From a virus, in the IMG/VR virus record IMGVR_UViG_3300012036_000005, positions 1 to 64,000 of that record: DNA of 64,000 bases. One strand, 5' to 3'. Of this stretch, positions 18,791 to 48,609 are shown in pieces (the stretch's first letter is position 1; the number at the start of each line of letters is the position of its first letter). Position numbers and translations under genes: made by a program. The notes under the pieces are model-generated. The model worked only from the letters and a program-made list of their open reading frames with translations, searched no databases and was not told the origin of the DNA.

Positions 18791-19039
18791 ATGAAAATAC
18801 AAGATATTGATCCTGCACTATTAGATGAAGCGAAAGCTTCACGTGCCCTTTGTAAATCAAGCACACCTAATTTTAAATTAGGTGCTAGCCAACTTGCCTC
18901 GTGTAAATCACAAGGTCTCCGTTCAAGAGAAGGCGACAAAAGCCATAAGTTAAGCAAAAAAAAGGGTTCAAGAACAAAAGTAGGCGGCAGGAAGATAAAA
19001 GGTAAGAAGTACGGCGGCCCTCTTCCGGATTGGAGTTAA
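18791..19039 (+). CDS. Small basic late protein
   Basis: TAAATA at 18780; MKIQDI..LLDE then K/R-rich body, KKYGGPLPDWS. Confidence 0.7.
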   Translation: MKIQDIDPALLDEAKASRALCKSSTPNFKLGASQLASCKSQGLRSREGDKSHKLSKKKGSRTKVGGRKIKGKKYGGPLPDWS

Positions 19040-28414: not shown

Positions 28415-28452
28415 GATAAATACTGATAATAAACTGCCAAGGAAGAGGTAAC

Positions 28453-29706
28453 ATGAAGTTAAATGACATTTCAAAACCACTAAGCGCAGCGCAACTGAAT
28501 GAAAACCTCTCAAAGAAATTTGGACAGAGGATTAAGATAGAAACATTTACGCGCGAGCAGCTTGAGAATGTTCGTAATAAGTTACGCACTACACTATCAC
28601 AAATTGAAACAAACGAAAGTTTTGATTCAGTAAACAACGAAGGTTATCAAAAGAATAAGATGTTCCTTGATGTAGTTAACGCTGCAATTAAAGAAATGGA
28701 CGAATCAGATGATAACACTGATACGCCAGATGATAACACCGACGAAAGTCTTAAATTTCATAAAAAGCGTAAGTTCAAAAAGTCACATTCTAATCGTTGG
28801 AAGCATTTTGGTGACGAAGAAGAAAACAATGCCCCTGCAATAGAAGCAAGAGAAGAAAAAGTAGCCAAAAAATCAAATTTTGACGAAAGATCATTAAGGA
28901 GATTGCAAAGAGCTAGAACACTTGACCAAGCACAAGAAATAGCTTTATCAATTATAAATGATCCAGAAAATACAATTAAACCTGAAAAGAAAAAATATTT
29001 TGCAAGACAGATAGAACGAGCAAATAGTCCGTTAAAAATAGTTGACATGTTTTATCAAATGATGCTTTCGGGTGAAGGACTAGGAACAATAGGAACAAGA
29101 GACGGTATGGGAAAATCAACTTATAGAAATAAATTTGAATCTAAAAACCTTAGAGAAGGTGAAGAAGATAAAGCAGAAATTATTATGGCTGCAAAAGATA
29201 TGGTTGACCGACTAACAGGTTGGATGGAAGATACTGCAGAGATGCAGACTGAGTCCATGCTTGAATTAGCAGATGCTATAAGAGACGAACTTGGGTCACA
29301 ACAAAGTGAAGGATTCTCTTCTCAAGTTAAGCCTGCCCTAGAAACACTATATCAAGCAATGGAACAAACTCGTGTAACACTAACACAAGGTGTTGGTTTG
29401 TTAACAGGTGAAACAGATGATATGGGAATGATGGGCGCAGATGACGAAATGGGCGGCGACGATATGGAACCAACAGTTGATGGAGAAGATCCTCTAGCAA
29501 TTGATGGAGAAGATCCATCAGCAGGCGACGAAGATCCGCGAGCAGGCGACGACGAGTTTGGAGCATCTGGTGCAGCAGACGGTGGTAGTGAATTGGCTGG
29601 CCGCCCCAAGAGAGAAAGCCGAGATCGTCGTATGGAAATGAAACGTAAGATGCTTGAATCTTCTCGTAGATTAGGTATGTTGCTAGGTTCAAAAAAAAAC
29701 CGCTAA
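28453..29706 (+). CDS. Putative prohead core/scaffold-like protein
   Basis: Late promoter at ~28417; coiled-coil and acidic; repeated (L/I)xE motifs; D/E/G/M-rich tail; ends at an A9 run. Function inferred. Confidence 0.5.
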   Translation: MKLNDISKPLSAAQLNENLSKKFGQRIKIETFTREQLENVRNKLRTTLSQIETNESFDSVNNEGYQKNKMFLDVVNAAIKEMDESDDNTDTPDDNTDESLKFHKKRKFKKSHSNRWKHFGDEEENNAPAIEAREEKVAKKSNFDERSLRRLQRARTLDQAQEIALSIINDPENTIKPEKKKYFARQIERANSPLKIVDMFYQMMLSGEGLGTIGTRDGMGKSTYRNKFESKNLREGEEDKAEIIMAAKDMVDRLTGWMEDTAEMQTESMLELADAIRDELGSQQSEGFSSQVKPALETLYQAMEQTRVTLTQGVGLLTGETDDMGMMGADDEMGGDDMEPTVDGEDPLAIDGEDPSAGDEDPRAGDDEFGASGAADGGSELAGRPKRESRDRRMEMKRKMLESSRRLGMLLGSKKNR

Positions 29707-30023
29707 GTGAAGGAATTGATACAAACAAAATTTATCAAGTTCTTGAATATTATAAGAATGTAGGTAAGTTAAAGTTATCAATTAAGAAATTAGATATTGT
29801 GATGCGCAACATAGGTGCATCACAATTTAATTATGAAGTTTTCAAAGCAGCATATGATTCCGATACAAAATTACAAGAATTAGTATCTGATTTTGATGAA
29901 AACAATATTACATTGTCTGATGGTAGTGCAGAATTAGAACCAGGTGCAGCTGAAGTTGGATCAGGTGGTGATTCAGTATCAAGTATGGCCCGCCGAGCAA
30001 CTGACCTGGGCGACAAGCTCTAA
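29691..30023 (+). CDS. ORF in the -1 frame of the upstream gene, open from 29670 with no start codon until GTG 29799
   Basis: KKKPLSEGIDTNKIYQVLEYYK...FNYEVFKAAYDSD...VSSMARRAT. Confidence 0.65.
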   Translation, partial: KKKPLSEGIDTNKIYQVLEYYKNVGKLKLSIKKLDIVMRNIGASQFNYEVFKAAYDSDTKLQELVSDFDENNITLSDGSAELEPGAAEVGSGGDSVSSMARRATDLGDKL

Positions 30024-30430
30024 TGAGATTAGTTGAATTATTTGATCGCCCACTTTCTTATACTTGGAAAGAAAAAGCTGAAGACCTCTGGGAAGGTTCT
30101 TTTAGATCGCCGTCGGGTCAACTAGTTTCTTTTATAGCAGAGAAACAAGGAAAAGCATGGGAAGTAGTATTTCATGTTAATCAGTCTCAAAACGTAACAG
30201 GAGAGGGTGACGAGATACCTATCTTTAGCACAGTTTTAAAGATGTTGTTTGAGTTTGCTCAAACAATGGAGCCATGGAAGGTAGTATTTGAATCATCAGA
30301 ACATGAACCATCAAGGGTAAAATTGTACAATGCAATGGTATCTAAATATGCCCGAGCAAACGGATATTCTACAAAGATAAAACAAAAAGGTAGTGGTTCC
30401 TTTGTTTTTGTCTTGGCAAATATTTCTTGA
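30023..30430 (+). CDS. Conserved hypothetical protein
   Basis: MRLVELFD; TG.GD...IFSTV, SR.KLY..MV. Confidence 0.7.
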   Translation: MRLVELFDRPLSYTWKEKAEDLWEGSFRSPSGQLVSFIAEKQGKAWEVVFHVNQSQNVTGEGDEIPIFSTVLKMLFEFAQTMEPWKVVFESSEHEPSRVKLYNAMVSKYARANGYSTKIKQKGSGSFVFVLANIS

Positions 30431-30460
30431 CTTTAGAGTGAAGATCAAGTATAATTATAC

Positions 30461-31177
30461 ATGACATTAATTAACCCTAAATATGATTATGCTAAACTTA
30501 CAAGAGCAACAGTAGAAGGAAAGAGAAAGTACCAAACACCGGATGGTGGCAAGGTATCCTCGGTCACTACTATATTAGATGCTACAAAACCCGAAGAGAG
30601 TCAAGTTGCTTTAGATAACTGGCGTAAGAGGGTAGGGCATCAAAAAGCACAGAGCATAACTACAGAAGCAGCCAATCGCGGAACAAGAATGCACAAGTAT
30701 CTTGAAGACTATGTAGATACAGGTATATGGCCAGAGGCTGGTTCTAATCCTTTTGCAAAACAATCACATATGATGGCAACTATTGTAAAAGAGCAAGCAT
30801 TATCTTATGTTGATGAGATATGGGGGTCGGAGGTTGCTCTTTATGTTCCTCAGATTTATGCAGGAACAACTGACCTAGTTGGAATTTACAAAGGTAATCC
30901 TGCTATAATGGATTTTAAGCAATCAAATAAAATTAAAAAAGCAGAATGGATACAAGACTACTATTTGCAGATTTCTTTATATATCGAAGCACACAATGAC
31001 ATGTTTGGAACAGACATCAAGCACGGACATATATTCATGTGTGTACAAGATGGAACATATCAACAGTTTGACTTATCGCCTGCCCCTGATCCACATTTCG
31101 GCAGAACATATGAGGATTGGAGATATATTGCATTAGATCGCGTTTATCAATATTATGAAAAATTTAGTAAAAAATAA
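30461..31177 (+). CDS. PD-(D/E)XK exonuclease (Cas4/YqaJ-like)
   Basis: SVTTIL, RGT.MH, E..L....YAGTTDL, IMDFKQS, Y.LQ...Y; TTGACT-N17-TATAAT at 30427-30455. Confidence 0.9.
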   Translation: MTLINPKYDYAKLTRATVEGKRKYQTPDGGKVSSVTTILDATKPEESQVALDNWRKRVGHQKAQSITTEAANRGTRMHKYLEDYVDTGIWPEAGSNPFAKQSHMMATIVKEQALSYVDEIWGSEVALYVPQIYAGTTDLVGIYKGNPAIMDFKQSNKIKKAEWIQDYYLQISLYIEAHNDMFGTDIKHGHIFMCVQDGTYQQFDLSPAPDPHFGRTYEDWRYIALDRVYQYYEKFSKK

Positions 31178-31216
31178 CGCATAAATATGTTATGAAACAT
31201 ACTAAGGAGAAATAAA

Positions 31217-32842
31217 GTGGCTGTCGTTCAAATCTCAAGGATACAAGTTCGTAGAGGGCAAAAGAATGCAGGTTCTGGATTGCCACAACTTGCAAGTGGA
31301 GAACTTGGTTGGGCAATTGATACCCAACAACTTTATATAGGTAACGGATCTGTTAGCGAAGGTGCGCCTGCTGTTGGTAATACCGAAATATTAACTACAA
31401 ATACTGATATATTTTCTTTAATTGATACGTACACATACGATGCAGACGATTTAATAGTTCAAACCGGCAGCACTCCTACTAATCCAATTGCAAGAACATT
31501 ACAAGATAGGTTAGATGATAGAGTTTCGGTTCGTTCATTTGGAGCAACAGGAGATGGATCGGATCAAACAGAAGCTTTTCAACGGGCAATAGATCAACTC
31601 TTTATAAACACGGCTACAAAAGGCAATGCATCAAGTAGACTTATATTACACATTGAACCCGGAGAATACTTAATATCCGAAACTATCTATGTCCCTCCTT
31701 ATGCTAACATCGTTGGAGCAGGAAAAGACAAGACTATAATAAATGGTGCTAACAATATCACTGTTTTTCAAACAGTAAATTCAACCTCTGTTCCGGGTAG
31801 TCCTGCACTTGATGCTACTAGCACCACACTCAATCAAGCAAAATATATTAATATGTCGGGCTTAACTATAAACACAGTTGGAGATGAAGCCAAGGGGTTG
31901 GTTTTAGAAAGTTGCACAGATTCAATATTTCATGATATGAAAATAACAGGTGATTGGGAAAGTGGTGATGCTGTTTCAATAACAGGCATTGGTATAAATT
32001 TGAAATCACTTTCAACTCCTGTTACTTGTACTCGTAATAGATTCTCTAATATAGAAATTGTTGGATTTTCATATGGAGTTGAATCAAGATATGACATAAC
32101 CAATAATACATTTGAAGATTGTGTTTTTCAAACATTAGGGCAAGGTGTAACATTTGGAAGAAATACAAACGGGGGTGTAAGCGGACAATTTACAGGACCA
32201 CTTAATAACACAATAACAAATACCGAATTTAGAGATATAGATCAAACAGCACTTCGAGTTATCAATGGAAAGTATAATTTAAGTGAAGGTAACCATTATT
32301 ATGATATAGGCAACGACGGTGGTACAGAAGCCAGTGCTATATATTCTGTTATAGAATTTAATGATCCAACTAACAGTTCAGCAAATGATCATATTTCTAG
32401 ATTTGCATCTCTTTCAGTTGACGGTACTTATATTAACGATCCTTTTGTTCCAGATCTAGCAGGAGATGCTATAGTTGAACAGGGGTTCGTAAATAACGCA
32501 ACAATTGTTCAAACCGGAGCAGGAACTACTATATTTAGGCTACCAGCAGATTCAGACAAGTCATACGAAGTAGATTACATTTATAGATCCAATCAAGTTG
32601 ATGCTTTAAGAAGAGGAACTTTACGATTTACAGTAGATTATTCGGAATCAACAGTTGAGATAGCAGAAGAATATGAGTATAATGGTAATTCAGCATACTT
32701 GACTTCTCTTTCATTTAATGCGTCGTTGACAGATGAAGATTCTGATGCTAGTATAGATACACTTGTAGTAACTTATGAAAACACTGTGACATCGGATACT
32801 GCAAATTTTTGGTTTAAGGTAAAGACTTATTCATTGTCATAA
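31217..32842 (+). CDS. Tail fibre/spike-like protein: Mtd_N/hyaluronidase-like N-terminus plus pectate-lyase-type beta-helix
   Basis: IQVRRG..LPQLASGELGWAIDT..LYIGNG; SVRSFGATGDG.D.T.AFQRAI; PGEY. Confidence 0.8.
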   Translation: MAVVQISRIQVRRGQKNAGSGLPQLASGELGWAIDTQQLYIGNGSVSEGAPAVGNTEILTTNTDIFSLIDTYTYDADDLIVQTGSTPTNPIARTLQDRLDDRVSVRSFGATGDGSDQTEAFQRAIDQLFINTATKGNASSRLILHIEPGEYLISETIYVPPYANIVGAGKDKTIINGANNITVFQTVNSTSVPGSPALDATSTTLNQAKYINMSGLTINTVGDEAKGLVLESCTDSIFHDMKITGDWESGDAVSITGIGINLKSLSTPVTCTRNRFSNIEIVGFSYGVESRYDITNNTFEDCVFQTLGQGVTFGRNTNGGVSGQFTGPLNNTITNTEFRDIDQTALRVINGKYNLSEGNHYYDIGNDGGTEASAIYSVIEFNDPTNSSANDHISRFASLSVDGTYINDPFVPDLAGDAIVEQGFVNNATIVQTGAGTTIFRLPADSDKSYEVDYIYRSNQVDALRRGTLRFTVDYSESTVEIAEEYEYNGNSAYLTSLSFNASLTDEDSDASIDTLVVTYENTVTSDTANFWFKVKTYSLS

Positions 32843-32843
32843 T

Positions 32844-33254
32844 ATGTTTAATGAAATTGACTACTACAGTCGATTAAAAAGTTGGAATGAACTTCGAGCT
32901 TCGCTTGAAGATTCTGACGACCCCTTTGGAGATCTCCAAAGGTTCTATAAGGAAGCGCCGCTTATTTCAATGGCAGCAGATCCTTATGATAAACTTTCTT
33001 GGCCTGATCCCTGGGAACAGATCGAGGAAAATATTTATTGTCCTTTTACGGTAGTACTGGCGATGTATTATAGTCTCCAGTTAAGTCGTCGCTTTAGTGA
33101 TAGTAAATTTGAGATACATATAGGTACGGATGGAAACAAAGAACAGATTTTGTATTTCTTGCGTGTGAACGGCCGACCAATTGGATTATGGGATGATGAA
33201 GATGTGCAAACAGTTATATCACAAGAAGTTCACATCATGCCTTCGTCCCTATAA
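32844..33254 (+). CDS. Conserved hypothetical protein
   Basis: RL..W...R, AP, WP.PWE.I.EN.YC. Confidence 0.7.
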   Translation: MFNEIDYYSRLKSWNELRASLEDSDDPFGDLQRFYKEAPLISMAADPYDKLSWPDPWEQIEENIYCPFTVVLAMYYSLQLSRRFSDSKFEIHIGTDGNKEQILYFLRVNGRPIGLWDDEDVQTVISQEVHIMPSSL

Positions 33255-33284
33255 ATAACCAGCTAATTTAAAATAGGAGATAAA

Positions 33285-35588
33285 ATGTCTGACGGAATTA
33301 TGATCATTAAAAGAGACGGATCAAAGGAACCTTTAAATATTGATAAGATACACTTTGTTGTTGACGAAGCTACTAAAGGACTAGCCGGAGTTTCAGCTTC
33401 ACAAATTGAAATGAATGCAAATCTACAATTTTACGATGGAATGACAACAAAAGAAATACAAGAAATACTAGTTCGATCTGCTAATGATCTAATATCATTA
33501 GATAATCCAAACTATCAATACGCAGCCTCAAGGCTGCTTCTTTATGGAACATATAAAGAAGTTTTTGGTGGATATCAAACAATTAGCTTGCGAGAAGTAA
33601 TTGAAGACAATATACTAAGGGAAGTATACGATAAAAAAATACTTGAACTATACGATGATGTTGAACTAAAAAGATTAAACTCGTATATAAATCATAAAAG
33701 AGACGAAAACTTTACATATGCAGGATTGAGACAAGTAGTTGACAAATACCTAGTTCAGGATCGATCAACTGGGCAAGTATTTGAAACTCCTCAATATATG
33801 TACATGATGATAGCAGCAACTCTTTTCTCTGGGTATCCCAAAGAAGAACGTATGCAATTAGTAAAAAGGTACTACGATGCAACCTCATTATTTAAGATTA
33901 ACATACCAACTCCTGTCATGGCCGGAGTCCGTACTCCAATTCGTCAGTTCGCTAGTTGTGTCTTGGTTGACAGCGATGATACCCTTAATAGTATCTTTTC
34001 TAGTGATATGGCTATCGGTAGGTATACAGCACAACGGGCCGGCATTGGTATCAACGCGGGACGAATTAGAGGCGTCAATTCGAAGATCAGAAACGGAGAA
34101 ATAGCACATACAGGTGTTGTCCCGTTTCTAAAGAAATTTGAAGCCACTGTTCGTTGTTGTACTCAAAATGGAGTAAGAGGTGGTTCGGCCACTGTTCATT
34201 TCCCAATTTGGCATCAAGAAATTGAAGATATACTTGTATTAAAGAATAACAAAGGAACAGAAGATAATCGAGTAAGAAAGCTAGACTATTCGATACAATT
34301 AAACAAAACTATGTATGAACGCCTCCTAACAGGAGGTGATATCACCTTGTTCTCACCACATGATGTTCCAGACCTATATGAAGCATACTTTGGTGATCCT
34401 AATGTGTTTAAGGAATTGTATGAATCTTATGAAAGAAAAATTTCAATAAAGAAAAGAAAAATTTCTGCAATGAAATTATTTTCTGAATTAATGAAAGAGA
34501 GAGCTGAAACAGGTCGAATTTATATAATGAATGTCGATCATTGTAATACACATTCTTCTTTTGTTGATAAAATCTACATGTCAAATCTTTGCCAAGAAAT
34601 AACTTTACCAACAAAGCCATTACAGCATATAGATGATCCAGAAGGAGAGATTGCACTTTGTATTCTCTCTGCTATCAATGTTGGATTGTTAAAGGATATT
34701 TCTGAATTAGAAGATTTGTGTGATATAGGAGTAAGGGCACTTGAAGAGATAATTGATTATCAAAAATATCCAATCCTGGCAGCAGAAATATCAACTAAGA
34801 AACGCCGTTCTCTAGGAATAGGTTATATAGGATTGGCACATTATCTAGCCAAGAACAAAGTTAAGTATTCAGATCCAAAGGCATGGGAGTCTGTACATGA
34901 GCTAACAGAAGCTTTTCAATATTATCTACTCAAAGCATCTAACAAGTTAGCTAAGGAAAGGGGACCTTGTGAAGGTTATAACCAAACCAAATACTCACAA
35001 GGATTACTACCAATTGATCATTACAAAAAGGATTTAGATAATGTCGTACCAAATACACTCAGATTTGATTGGGAGCAGCTTCGTTCGGACATTCAAGAGT
35101 CGGGATTACGGCACTCAACATTGTCAGCACAGATGCCATCGGAGAGCAGTTCCGTTGTGTCGAATGCAACAAACGGAATTGAACCGCCGCGCGGATACTT
35201 GTCCGTTAAGAAGTCAAAAAAAGGCCCTCTTAAACAGATTGTTCCACAATATCAAACTCTTCGTAACTACTATACATTGTTATGGGAAATGCCCTCCAAC
35301 GAAGGATACATCAACATTGTTGCCGTCATGCAAAAGTTCTTTGACCAAAGTATCTCAGGAAACTGGAGTTACAATCCAACACAATTCGAAAACAACGAAG
35401 TACCAATGTCCGTAATGATGAAAGACTTGTTACAAACCTATAAATTAGGATGGAAGACTTCTTATTACTTAAACACTTATGATTATAAAACTGATGATGA
35501 AATAGTATTTGAAGAAGAAAAGATAGCTGTTCCTTTAAAATTAGAAATAATGGAAGATGCAGAAGATTGTGAAGCTTGTAATATATAA
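33285..35588 (+). CDS. nrdA: Ribonucleotide reductase class Ia alpha subunit with ATP cone
   Basis: IKRDG ATP cone, QFASCVL, SNLCQEI, MPSESSS, NGIEP, KTSYY, C-terminal CEAC; TATAAATA at 33250. Confidence 0.98.
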   Translation: MSDGIMIIKRDGSKEPLNIDKIHFVVDEATKGLAGVSASQIEMNANLQFYDGMTTKEIQEILVRSANDLISLDNPNYQYAASRLLLYGTYKEVFGGYQTISLREVIEDNILREVYDKKILELYDDVELKRLNSYINHKRDENFTYAGLRQVVDKYLVQDRSTGQVFETPQYMYMMIAATLFSGYPKEERMQLVKRYYDATSLFKINIPTPVMAGVRTPIRQFASCVLVDSDDTLNSIFSSDMAIGRYTAQRAGIGINAGRIRGVNSKIRNGEIAHTGVVPFLKKFEATVRCCTQNGVRGGSATVHFPIWHQEIEDILVLKNNKGTEDNRVRKLDYSIQLNKTMYERLLTGGDITLFSPHDVPDLYEAYFGDPNVFKELYESYERKISIKKRKISAMKLFSELMKERAETGRIYIMNVDHCNTHSSFVDKIYMSNLCQEITLPTKPLQHIDDPEGEIALCILSAINVGLLKDISELEDLCDIGVRALEEIIDYQKYPILAAEISTKKRRSLGIGYIGLAHYLAKNKVKYSDPKAWESVHELTEAFQYYLLKASNKLAKERGPCEGYNQTKYSQGLLPIDHYKKDLDNVVPNTLRFDWEQLRSDIQESGLRHSTLSAQMPSESSSVVSNATNGIEPPRGYLSVKKSKKGPLKQIVPQYQTLRNYYTLLWEMPSNEGYINIVAVMQKFFDQSISGNWSYNPTQFENNEVPMSVMMKDLLQTYKLGWKTSYYLNTYDYKTDDEIVFEEEKIAVPLKLEIMEDAEDCEACNI

Positions 35589-35640
35589 TTCTTGACAAAT
35601 TGCACAAAGACGTTATTATAAACTATAAGAAGGAACAAGA

Positions 35641-36744
35641 ATGGGTAAAACTGTATTCAATACTAATAAGGTAGATTTCACTAAACAACATATGTTCTTT
35701 GGTGAAGATCAAAATACACAAAGATATGATACATTTAAGTTTCCAGTATACGACAAGTTAAATCAAACTATGCTTGGATATTTCTGGAGACCTGAAGAAG
35801 TAAGTTTACAAAAAGACAGAGCAGACTATCAAAGTTTTCGTCCTGAACAAAAACACATATTTACTGCTAATTTGAAGTATCAAACCCTTCTAGACAGCGT
35901 GCAGGGTCGGGGACCATGCCTAGCATTCCTCCCTCACGTTTCGTTACCAGAGCTAGAAGGATGCATCGTCACTTGGGATTTCTTTGAGACGATCCACTCA
36001 CGTTCATACACGCATATAATGAAAAACATCTATGCGGATCCGAGTGAGGTGTTTGATACTATACTTGATGACCAAGAGATACTAAAACGAGCAGCCAGTG
36101 TTACTAAAAATTATGATACCTTTACTAACACAGCTGATGAATGGTTTCACCACGGTCGAGGGTCATTGCACGAAGTAAAAAAGAAACTTTACCTTGCAAT
36201 GATGAATGTAAATATTCTCGAAGGATTGCGATTTTATGTTTCTTTTGCATGTACTTTTGCATTCGGAGAACTTAAAATAATGGAAGGTTCAGCTAAGATC
36301 ATTTCTCTTATAGCAAGAGATGAAGCACAACATTTGGCACTAAGCACACACATTCTTAAGAATTGGTCACAAGGTAAAGATGATCCCGAAATGGTTGAGA
36401 TCGCAAAAGAATGTCGTGAAGAAGTAATTGAAATGTGGAAAAATTGTGTGCTTGAAGAAAAGGCTTGGGCAAAACATCTTTTTAAGGATGGTTCAATAAT
36501 TGGATTAAATGAAACATTGTTGCATCAATATGTAGAATATATTGCCAATAGAAGATTAAAAGCATTAGGATACGAAGCAATATTTGATGCACCTGTTAAT
36601 ACAAATCCATTGCCATGGACTCAACATTGGTTAAGTTCAAGTGGATTACAAGTGGCTCCACAAGAAACAGAAGTCGAATCTTATATTATCGGCGGCATTA
36701 AACAAGACGTTAGCGGAGATACTTGGAAAGGATTTGAACTATGA
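35641..36744 (+). CDS. nrdB: Ribonucleotide reductase class Ia beta subunit
   Basis: FWRPEE, LDSVQGR, ETIHSRSY, LEG.RFY.SF, RDEAQH, VAPQE.E..SY. Confidence 0.98.
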   Translation: MGKTVFNTNKVDFTKQHMFFGEDQNTQRYDTFKFPVYDKLNQTMLGYFWRPEEVSLQKDRADYQSFRPEQKHIFTANLKYQTLLDSVQGRGPCLAFLPHVSLPELEGCIVTWDFFETIHSRSYTHIMKNIYADPSEVFDTILDDQEILKRAASVTKNYDTFTNTADEWFHHGRGSLHEVKKKLYLAMMNVNILEGLRFYVSFACTFAFGELKIMEGSAKIISLIARDEAQHLALSTHILKNWSQGKDDPEMVEIAKECREEVIEMWKNCVLEEKAWAKHLFKDGSIIGLNETLLHQYVEYIANRRLKALGYEAIFDAPVNTNPLPWTQHWLSSSGLQVAPQETEVESYIIGGIKQDVSGDTWKGFEL

Positions 36745-48479: not shown

Positions 48480-48609
48480 AGATTGAGATTATATGCCCGA
48501 ATCCCAAAGATATTGTCATTTTGCACTAGTGCATAGCATTAAGAAAAAAAAAGAAAATGGCATAAGCTCGCTAAGACATATAATCAATAGTTCAGTGGAC
48601 AAAAAAGGG

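Follow-up and report, generated by a model that had tools for sequence, protein, structure and literature searches.

Recoding by a −1 shift near the end of a gene has two classical examples in phages, the tail chaperone and the capsid protein of T7, and slippage on A-rich sites is also described in dnaX of Escherichia coli and Thermus thermophilus. Here we describe a further site in the first 64,000 nucleotides (positions 1 to 64,000; hereafter the window) of IMG/VR virus record IMGVR_UViG_3300012036_000005, where a run of nine A's (A9) closes a 417-codon open reading frame (ORF), termed A, and a second open stretch, termed B, continues in the −1 frame. The whole record is 100,552 bp long with a CheckV completeness of 29%, which implies a genome of approximately 350 kb. 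As judged from sequence comparison, the A9 site is a genuine, conserved site of recoding, known in mechanism but not previously reported; a literature search found no report of an A-B frameshift. Beyond those two phage examples, it provides a recoding event with good support, in a large, abundant and uncultured lineage of marine T4-related jumbo phages that has more than 3500 A homologues and complete relatives of about 350 kb.

The tau/gamma system of E. coli dnaX uses A_AAA_AAG, the heptamer of 84 of the 101 frameshift-type junctions described below, and it shares with the A-B locus in-phase slippage, a fixed ratio of two products from one mRNA and a nearby stop that defines one of them. In E. 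coli dnaX, however, the shifted product is the shorter one, as the −1 frame soon runs into a stop, whereas here it would lengthen an unrelated protein by 107 residues; and dnaX has a defined upstream Shine–Dalgarno (SD)-like element and a downstream stem-loop, whereas no specific stimulator was found here. The tail chaperone pair G/GT of lambda and most long-tailed phages likewise depends on a conserved −1 shift near the end of a late gene, which places a C-terminal domain on a minority of the product at a site that outlasts protein divergence. The G/GT genes lie between tail tube and tape measure, whereas A-B adjoins an exonuclease gene and nrdAB; the proteins are unrelated, and the lambda slippery sequence is G_GGA_AAG. 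The T7/T3 proteins 10A/10B also pair a virion-associated protein with a scarcer version that a −1 shift near the stop codon extends at the C-terminus, but A is not the major capsid protein (MCP), which in the complete relative G001 is encoded about 235 kb away, and the T7 site, which is G_GUU_UUC-like, relies on 3′ sequence some distance away.

Transcriptional slippage on A9/T9 in Thermus thermophilus dnaX and in insertion sequence elements likewise involves a run of nine A's on the coding strand and yields products that differ in their C-terminal frame. In Thermus dnaX the slipped products are the truncated ones, whereas in the family described here the run tends to end in AAG, stays in phase and persists with six A's in some members, which favours the ribosome. 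Among cultured phages, Pseudomonas phage PA5oct (EST35_0237/0238), Klebsiella phage RaK2 (ORF135/136) and phAPEC6 (gp183c/182c) encode an A homologue, and the small ORF that comes next, about 105-116 aa long, has an N-terminus of the same type; the RaK2 ORF also has a similar C-terminal tail. Unlike in the window, these pairs are separate genes with their own starts, and no slippery heptamer joins them.

The A9 site and its counterparts in related phages

The site in the window consists of the following elements.

28453-29706, + strand: ORF A, 417 aa, from the open reading frame list
29691-29700, + strand: slippery site, the A9 run plus C, in phase with A and holding A_AAA_AAA (29691-29697) and A_AAA_AAC (29694-29700)
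29704-29706, + strand: 0-frame stop TAA, one codon past the heptamer, which ends the short product A
29697-30023, + strand: −1 extension B, 107-108 codons plus TAA (30021-30023)

ORF A ends in TCA AAA AAA AAC CGC TAA, with the nine A's at 29691-29699 and a C at 29690 before the run. The −1 frame has a TAG at 29667-29669, is then open from 29670 to the TAA at 30021-30023, and meets its first ATG, GTG or TTG past 29670 only at GTG 29799. The predicted A-B fusion is 523 aa long (416 + 107), a net gain of 106 aa, which comes close to the extension of about 108 aa claimed in a preliminary description of this DNA. Direct reading of the sequence agreed with that description on the A9C run, the SKKN-type end and the X_XXY_YYZ heptamers at 29691-29700, and frame translation confirmed the open −1 frame (29670-30023) in which no start precedes GTG 29799. 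The absence of a clear ribosome-binding site that it noted at this GTG is matched by the lack of any SD-like sequence ahead of the GTG/ATG at 29799-29804, and the peptide of about 35 codons that it quoted is present, with an LxE motif that here reads L-S-E.

Two scans of IMG/VR, one with A itself and the other with a B profile, gave 172 loci and, after removal of identical ones, 115 junctions; the A proteins of the surveyed contigs are 39-72% identical to that of the window. The preliminary description asked whether orthologues keep SKKK followed by a stop and a −1-frame ORF, and they largely do: 101 of the 115 junctions show a B homologue that is in the −1 frame and overlaps the 3′ end of the A gene, with an in-phase heptamer within the overlap, against approximately one third expected by chance. 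Besides the 84 cases of A_AAA_AAG, the heptamer is A_AAA_AAA in 13 and A_AAA_AAC in four of these 101 junctions. The 0-frame stop follows within 0-2 codons in 98 of them (directly in 65, after one codon in 21 and after two codons in 12). No ATG, GTG or TTG precedes the start of B homology in the B frame of 77, and that homology starts at most six residues past the K-K-K of the slip site in 74; in the second scan, tblastn homology began at residue 1-2 of the B query in all 80 matches. L018, the nearest relative, with 72% identity to A across the aligned central domain, shares the A9C, the stop and the −1 ORF.

In the 14 junctions that lack a heptamer, the A run is interrupted by synonymous or conservative changes (e.g., TCA AGC AGA AAG or AGT AAG ACT AGT AAA). 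All 14 provide B with a separate ribosome-binding site of the AGGA type and with an ATG that lies 4-16 nt past the A stop, in any of the three frames. When aligned, the N-termini of these stand-alone B proteins, M-[KRL]-[VIM]-x-[ED], fall opposite the K-K-[VIL]-x-E of frameshift B, and the slip site therefore lies exactly where a stand-alone B would begin. At the level of sequence, this coupled pattern, in which a junction has either a heptamer without a start or a start without a heptamer, is the classical signature of programmed recoding. In a maximum-likelihood tree of A from which the trait region was left out, frameshift forms occur on both deep sides and the stand-alone forms fall within one well-supported subclade.

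None of the 115 junctions holds an in-frame A-B fusion. A search of 5.8 billion non-redundant sequences found no longer protein containing B, and none of the best 150 of 620 profile hits among 1.84 billion representative proteins has B at the C-terminus of a long protein. Public gene calls give B only as fragments of 65-82 aa that begin at an internal Met. Because these calls shorten B or miss it, annotation pipelines and protein-family resources carry the wrong protein.

Chance also accounts poorly for the run itself. A/T runs of at least 8 give five overlapping matches in the window, compared with 27.7 ± 7.3 in dinucleotide shuffles, of which 100 of 100 had at least five. Since long A/T runs are depleted in the window and the run is kept in phase in about 100 diverged relatives, the A9 run is more than a chance occurrence. 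Short and extended forms made through a programmed −1 event, as the preliminary description proposed, are strongly supported by the comparison of junctions, and we regard programmed −1 recoding at the A9 site, whether by the ribosome or by the RNA polymerase, as highly probable on these grounds.

Ribosomal slippage and the alternatives

That description named the ribosome as the agent of the shift. The recoding stands and the ribosome is favoured, but polymerase slippage on A9 would yield the same protein. We estimate a probability of roughly 0.7 that mainly ribosomal −1 slippage makes the A-B fusion. The codons at the site point in this direction: among 45 cases with Lys at the A site, 34 use AAG, compared with a background of 31%, although the codon-count statistics treat related sequences as independent, so that their p-value is only indicative. 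The heptamer A_AAA_AAG is the most shift-prone one in E. coli (Atkins et al. 2016, PMC5009743).

The alternative that survives best is that the RNA polymerase stutters on A9 and adds one A to some transcripts, after which standard translation would run from A into B. We consider this possible, if clearly the less probable agent. Several observations speak for it and weigh against a mainly ribosomal shift; the limit on the codon statistics also weighs against the latter. Bacterial RNA polymerase slips efficiently on 9 A/T (PMC5009743), and runs of 9-10 A's, a length that suits such slippage, occur in 88 of the 101 frameshift-type junctions; the window, too, has A9. TCA directly precedes the run in 37 of 47 cases, compared with a background of 38%, and extends it from 8 to 9. 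The A-site codon of the window, AAC, is a poor ribosomal shifter in E. coli, being the weaker A-site codon for its ribosomes (PMC5009743), although the preference of E. coli may not be that of the host. The protein product of both routes is identical, so protein alignment has nothing to say against the polymerase. A further point against a mainly ribosomal shift is that no specific stimulatory RNA was found in downstream folding, in upstream elements or in Rfam, which gave no match.

Three features of the family speak against polymerase slippage. As last codon, AAG outnumbers AAA by 84 to 13 heptamers, although AAG shortens the run while giving the best ribosomal heptamer. Nine junctions have only A8, and three (L141, L154 and L170, from different samples) have only GGA AAA AAG TCG TAA, with six A's and with B still lacking a start codon. 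The run is always in 0-frame phase and the stop almost always lies within 0-2 codons, both of which are features of ribosomal sites that polymerase slippage does not need. A mixture of ribosomal and polymerase slippage is plausible. The family offers a natural experiment, with about 100 frameshift forms, 14 reversions to two genes, runs of 6-10 A's and three A-site codons, and such differences could help to tell slippage by the ribosome from slippage by the polymerase and to probe why a fixed A : A-B ratio is selected.

Candidate stimulators of a ribosomal shift were compared between frameshift and stand-alone loci. Downstream folding reaches a z of −1.7 in the former versus −1.5 in the latter, and a downstream hairpin was therefore rejected as specific evidence, since stand-alone loci fold equally strongly. 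The AGGT elements to which the preliminary description drew attention are present at 29673-29676 and 29685-29688, but they are not specific to frameshifting loci: they correspond to conserved Leu-Gly codons, are absent from one frameshifting clade and are kept in stand-alone loci, as is the upstream TAGGT, so that a role as SD-like stimulator is unsupported. The sole recurrent feature near the heptamer is the 0-frame stop 0-2 codons downstream, and we infer that this near-adjacent stop is the main stimulator.

Much further behind is the explanation by two ordinary genes, in which B would be translated from GTG 29799 or ATG 29802, or by reinitiation past the A stop, the 35 codons in between would be an untranslated spacer and the A run incidental. 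Gene callers annotate B in this way, and B is a stand-alone gene in the 14 marine relatives and in RaK2, phAPEC6 and PA5oct, which indicates that B is able to function unfused. In about 100 loci, however, the supposed spacer is conserved as protein from the first codon past K-K-K; most loci lack a start codon there, and stand-alone genes start at the position aligned with the slip site, not at the internal Met. The supposed spacer also encodes the first helix and strand of the predicted B fold: in the AlphaFold2 model of B, which has a predicted local distance difference test score (pLDDT) of 71, helix 11-23, with the nearly invariant L18, and strand 28-30 (pLDDT about 85) precede V37, the residue of GTG 29799. 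Since these elements are encoded 5′ of the sole start codon, the phage of the window would have no other way to make full B. Besides having no SD-like sequence ahead of it, that start is covered in the window by a hairpin.

29796-29826, + strand: 12-bp hairpin over the first in-frame GTG/ATG of the B frame (29799-29804), perfect 10-12 bp, −16.7 kcal/mol, z about −5

Across 58 relatives, the position homologous to it averages a z of about 0, and the hairpin was therefore rejected as a conserved element and is specific to the window, where it might block internal initiation or serve as a structure acting at a distance. On this balance, we consider two ordinary genes very unlikely.

A9 runs are error-prone on some sequencing platforms, and the preliminary description accordingly kept a homopolymer error as its alternative (a true run of A10). 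An error of this kind, with a true run of A10 or A7 and A-B as one ordinary ORF, is excluded for practical purposes, since neither an in-frame junction nor a fused protein was found in the searches above, L018 shares the layout, the same −1 relation holds across about 100 independently assembled, diverged contigs from many IMG/VR samples, and wherever the frame relation differs the A run is gone and B has its own start.

The two proteins and a possible role of the fusion

Expression of A would begin from a late-type signal, ATAAATA, and a strong ribosome-binding site.

28416-28422, + strand: ATAAATA, late-promoter-core-like, 30 nt 5′ of the A start, read from sequence
28439-28449, + strand: strong SD region of ORF A (AAGGAAGAGGT), read from sequence, with a gap of 3 nt to ATG 28453

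We take ATAAATA to resemble the T4-type late promoter core (TATAAATA); exact TATAAATA showed no enrichment in the window. Most ribosomes would terminate at TAA 29704 and release the 417-aa A, and a fixed minority would shift one base backwards at the in-phase heptamer (A_AAA_AAC or A_AAA_AAA) and read 107 more codons to give the 523-aa A-B. The shift would in this way set the A : A-B ratio, which lineages with two genes must set otherwise.

More than 3546 homologues of A were found. Its AlphaFold2 model is all-helical (mean pLDDT 68), and the protein can be divided as follows.

Residues 1-88: conserved helical N-terminus
Residues 145-205: small helical insert
Residues 234-318: long helical hairpin (AlphaFold2)
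Residues 329-391: disordered acidic stretch
Residues 392-411: basic helix, before the end S-K-K-N-R

Within the N-terminus, L15-N16-E17 is invariant. A search against PHROGs gave a match confined to the N-terminal part of phrog_14154, annotated as "virion structural protein". Pfam has no family for A or B, and blastn and tblastn searches with A, its conserved domain and B gave no match among 50,697 phage records. Profile searches of the PDB returned no significant match, Foldseek comparison of A with the PDB returned generic helical hairpins only (E >2), and the ESM Atlas returned only "hypothetical" viral clusters. The helical hairpin, acidic stretch and basic helix give the modelled A a scaffold-like look, which is undiagnostic.

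Module B begins with [VIL]-x-E (here L-S-E), which is followed by a winged-helix-like alpha/beta domain and a conserved C-terminal tail. The structural neighbours of B are all winged-helix proteins (ESCRT-II, MCM, Stn1, Cdt1 and the MukE/JetB type), with Z of 5-6.4, below the secure level, and the model of B is a small, winged-helix-like domain. Proteins of 261-771 aa from other lineages (P0135, P0138 and P0148, with 261, 463 and 771 aa) carry the B module as their N-terminal domain, and their remainder is unrelated to A; this suggests that B acts as an autonomous module. The longest of these, P0148, was considered as a bridge between B and phrog_14154 and was rejected, as it neither hits a PHROG nor shows similarity to A.

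The likely purpose of the shift, we infer, is to place a sub-stoichiometric winged-helix-like adaptor module on an elongated helical protein that has a distant relative in virion preparations. A more speculative extension, which we think rather improbable, concerns dosing and delivery. Under it, A would be a capsid-targeted helical carrier, the shift would put B on a fixed few percent of A and thus set the copy number of B in the prohead, and a T4-type protease would free B at the [VIL]-x-E past the slip site. A hydrophobic residue followed by x-Glu ([LI]-x-E) is the type of site cleaved by the T4 prohead protease. In the frameshift forms inspected, [VIL]-x-E stands 4-8 residues past K-K-K, and a gp21-type protease is present in G001. 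Because the motif past the slip site and the invariant L15-N16-E17 of A both fit a T4 protease site, release of B inside the prohead is suggested as a possibility. If this were true, the freed B would be identical in kind to the mature protein at which lineages with a stand-alone B gene (N-terminus M-K-V-S-E...) arrive differently.

The window ORFs at 28453 and 30023, the stand-alone B genes (L005-L075), RaK2 ORF136, phAPEC6 gp182c and PA5oct 0237/0238 all encode proteins that begin with M-[KR]-[LIVF]-x-[DE]-[ILV]; the aligned residues in frameshift forms of B are K-K-[VIL]-x-E. The shared N-terminus could be a targeting or processing tag.

Genomic context and cultured relatives

The complete relative G001 (357,559 bp) encodes a T4-type prohead protease (PF03420, 111.8-112.2 kb) and a gp23-type MCP (PF07068, 109.4-110.4 kb), which indicates that the lineage is T4-related. 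Its A-B locus is at 347 kb. This distance from the protease-MCP cluster implies that A is not the gp22 equivalent, and the label of core/scaffold-like head-assembly protein that the preliminary description attached to A was not upheld, given also the lack of a Pfam family and the exonuclease and nrdAB genes next to it. Identification of A-B as a tail assembly chaperone of the G/GT type was rejected as well: the neighbours are genes for an exonuclease, a pectate-lyase-like fibre protein and nrdAB, and no chaperone hit was obtained in Pfam or PHROGs.

Profile searches identified A homologues in four cultured jumbo phages.

Atu_ph07, 772-aa ORF: E 1.7e-15
PA5oct, EST35_0237: E 1.5e-13
phAPEC6, gp183c: E 4.5e-9
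RaK2, ORF135: E 4.8e-8

The gene order in the window is A, B, C, exonuclease (30461), a fibre-like 541-aa gene, a 136-aa gene, nrdA (33285) and nrdB (35641); in RaK2, phAPEC6 and PA5oct the A homologue is followed by a separate small ORF, a RecB-like exonuclease, nrdA and nrdB. The syntenic block, 28453-36744 in the window, is shared with RaK2 (L186), PA5oct (L191) and phAPEC6 (L192), with 39-41% identity of the RecB-like exonuclease and 1-2 further genes before nrdA. The 136-aa ORF of the window (32844-33254) matches PA5oct EST35_0242 (E 1.6e-10). RaK2 ORF136 shares the C-terminal tail motif of B, a weak match (E 8.6e-6 versus four sequences), and B homology in PA5oct is undetectable.

RaK2 ORF135 ends in GAG AAA AAA TAA (L186:7470-7560) and ORF136 lies in its −1 frame, which is open across the junction; phAPEC6 gp183c also ends in AAA AAA TAA. 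These A-rich gene ends could represent a pre-adaptation for the marine frameshift site, or could permit low-level fusion in the cultured phages.

PA5oct EST35_0237, 0238 and 0239 are annotated as "structural protein, ESI-MS/MS" (electrospray ionization tandem mass spectrometry), and the same list holds nrdA and nrdB. The PA5oct paper counts 7 "virion-unrelated enzymes" among its 93 proteins. Because the list includes these enzymes and the ribonucleotide reductase subunits, virion association of A, argued by analogy with PA5oct, is plausible but not secure; the annotation of phrog_14154 leans to the same side. The RaK2 and Atu_ph07 papers make no mention of the A homologues.

Downstream of B, the window contains one further small gene.

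30023-30430, + strand: ORF C, 135 aa, with an ATG that overlaps the B stop (TAATG); last gene ahead of a sigma70-like promoter at 30427-30455

In most related marine loci (L001-L092) a CTTGACA promoter box stands directly 3′ of the B stop, which suggests that A-B closes a transcription unit. Tblastn found no homologue of ORF C in the related marine loci, and by this comparison ORF C is an insertion specific to the phage of the window. It was considered as a conserved, translationally coupled partner of B and rejected, since related loci have no homologue and most have the promoter box after B. The sigma70-like promoter at 30427-30455 (TTGACT-17-TATAAT, 11/12) precedes the exonuclease gene.

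Counted as separate runs, the A/T runs of at least 8 in the window are three, at 18956, 29691 and 48544. The last is an A9 (48544-48552) in a short ORF or intergenic stretch. The first belongs to a second in-phase A_AAA_AAG (18950-18965; AGC AAA AAA AAG, A8) in an ORF at 18791-19039, which encodes a basic protein of 82 aa and also reads L-S-K-K-K-G. The −1 frame at this site closes after about 16 codons, so that a shift would shorten the protein, not lengthen it.

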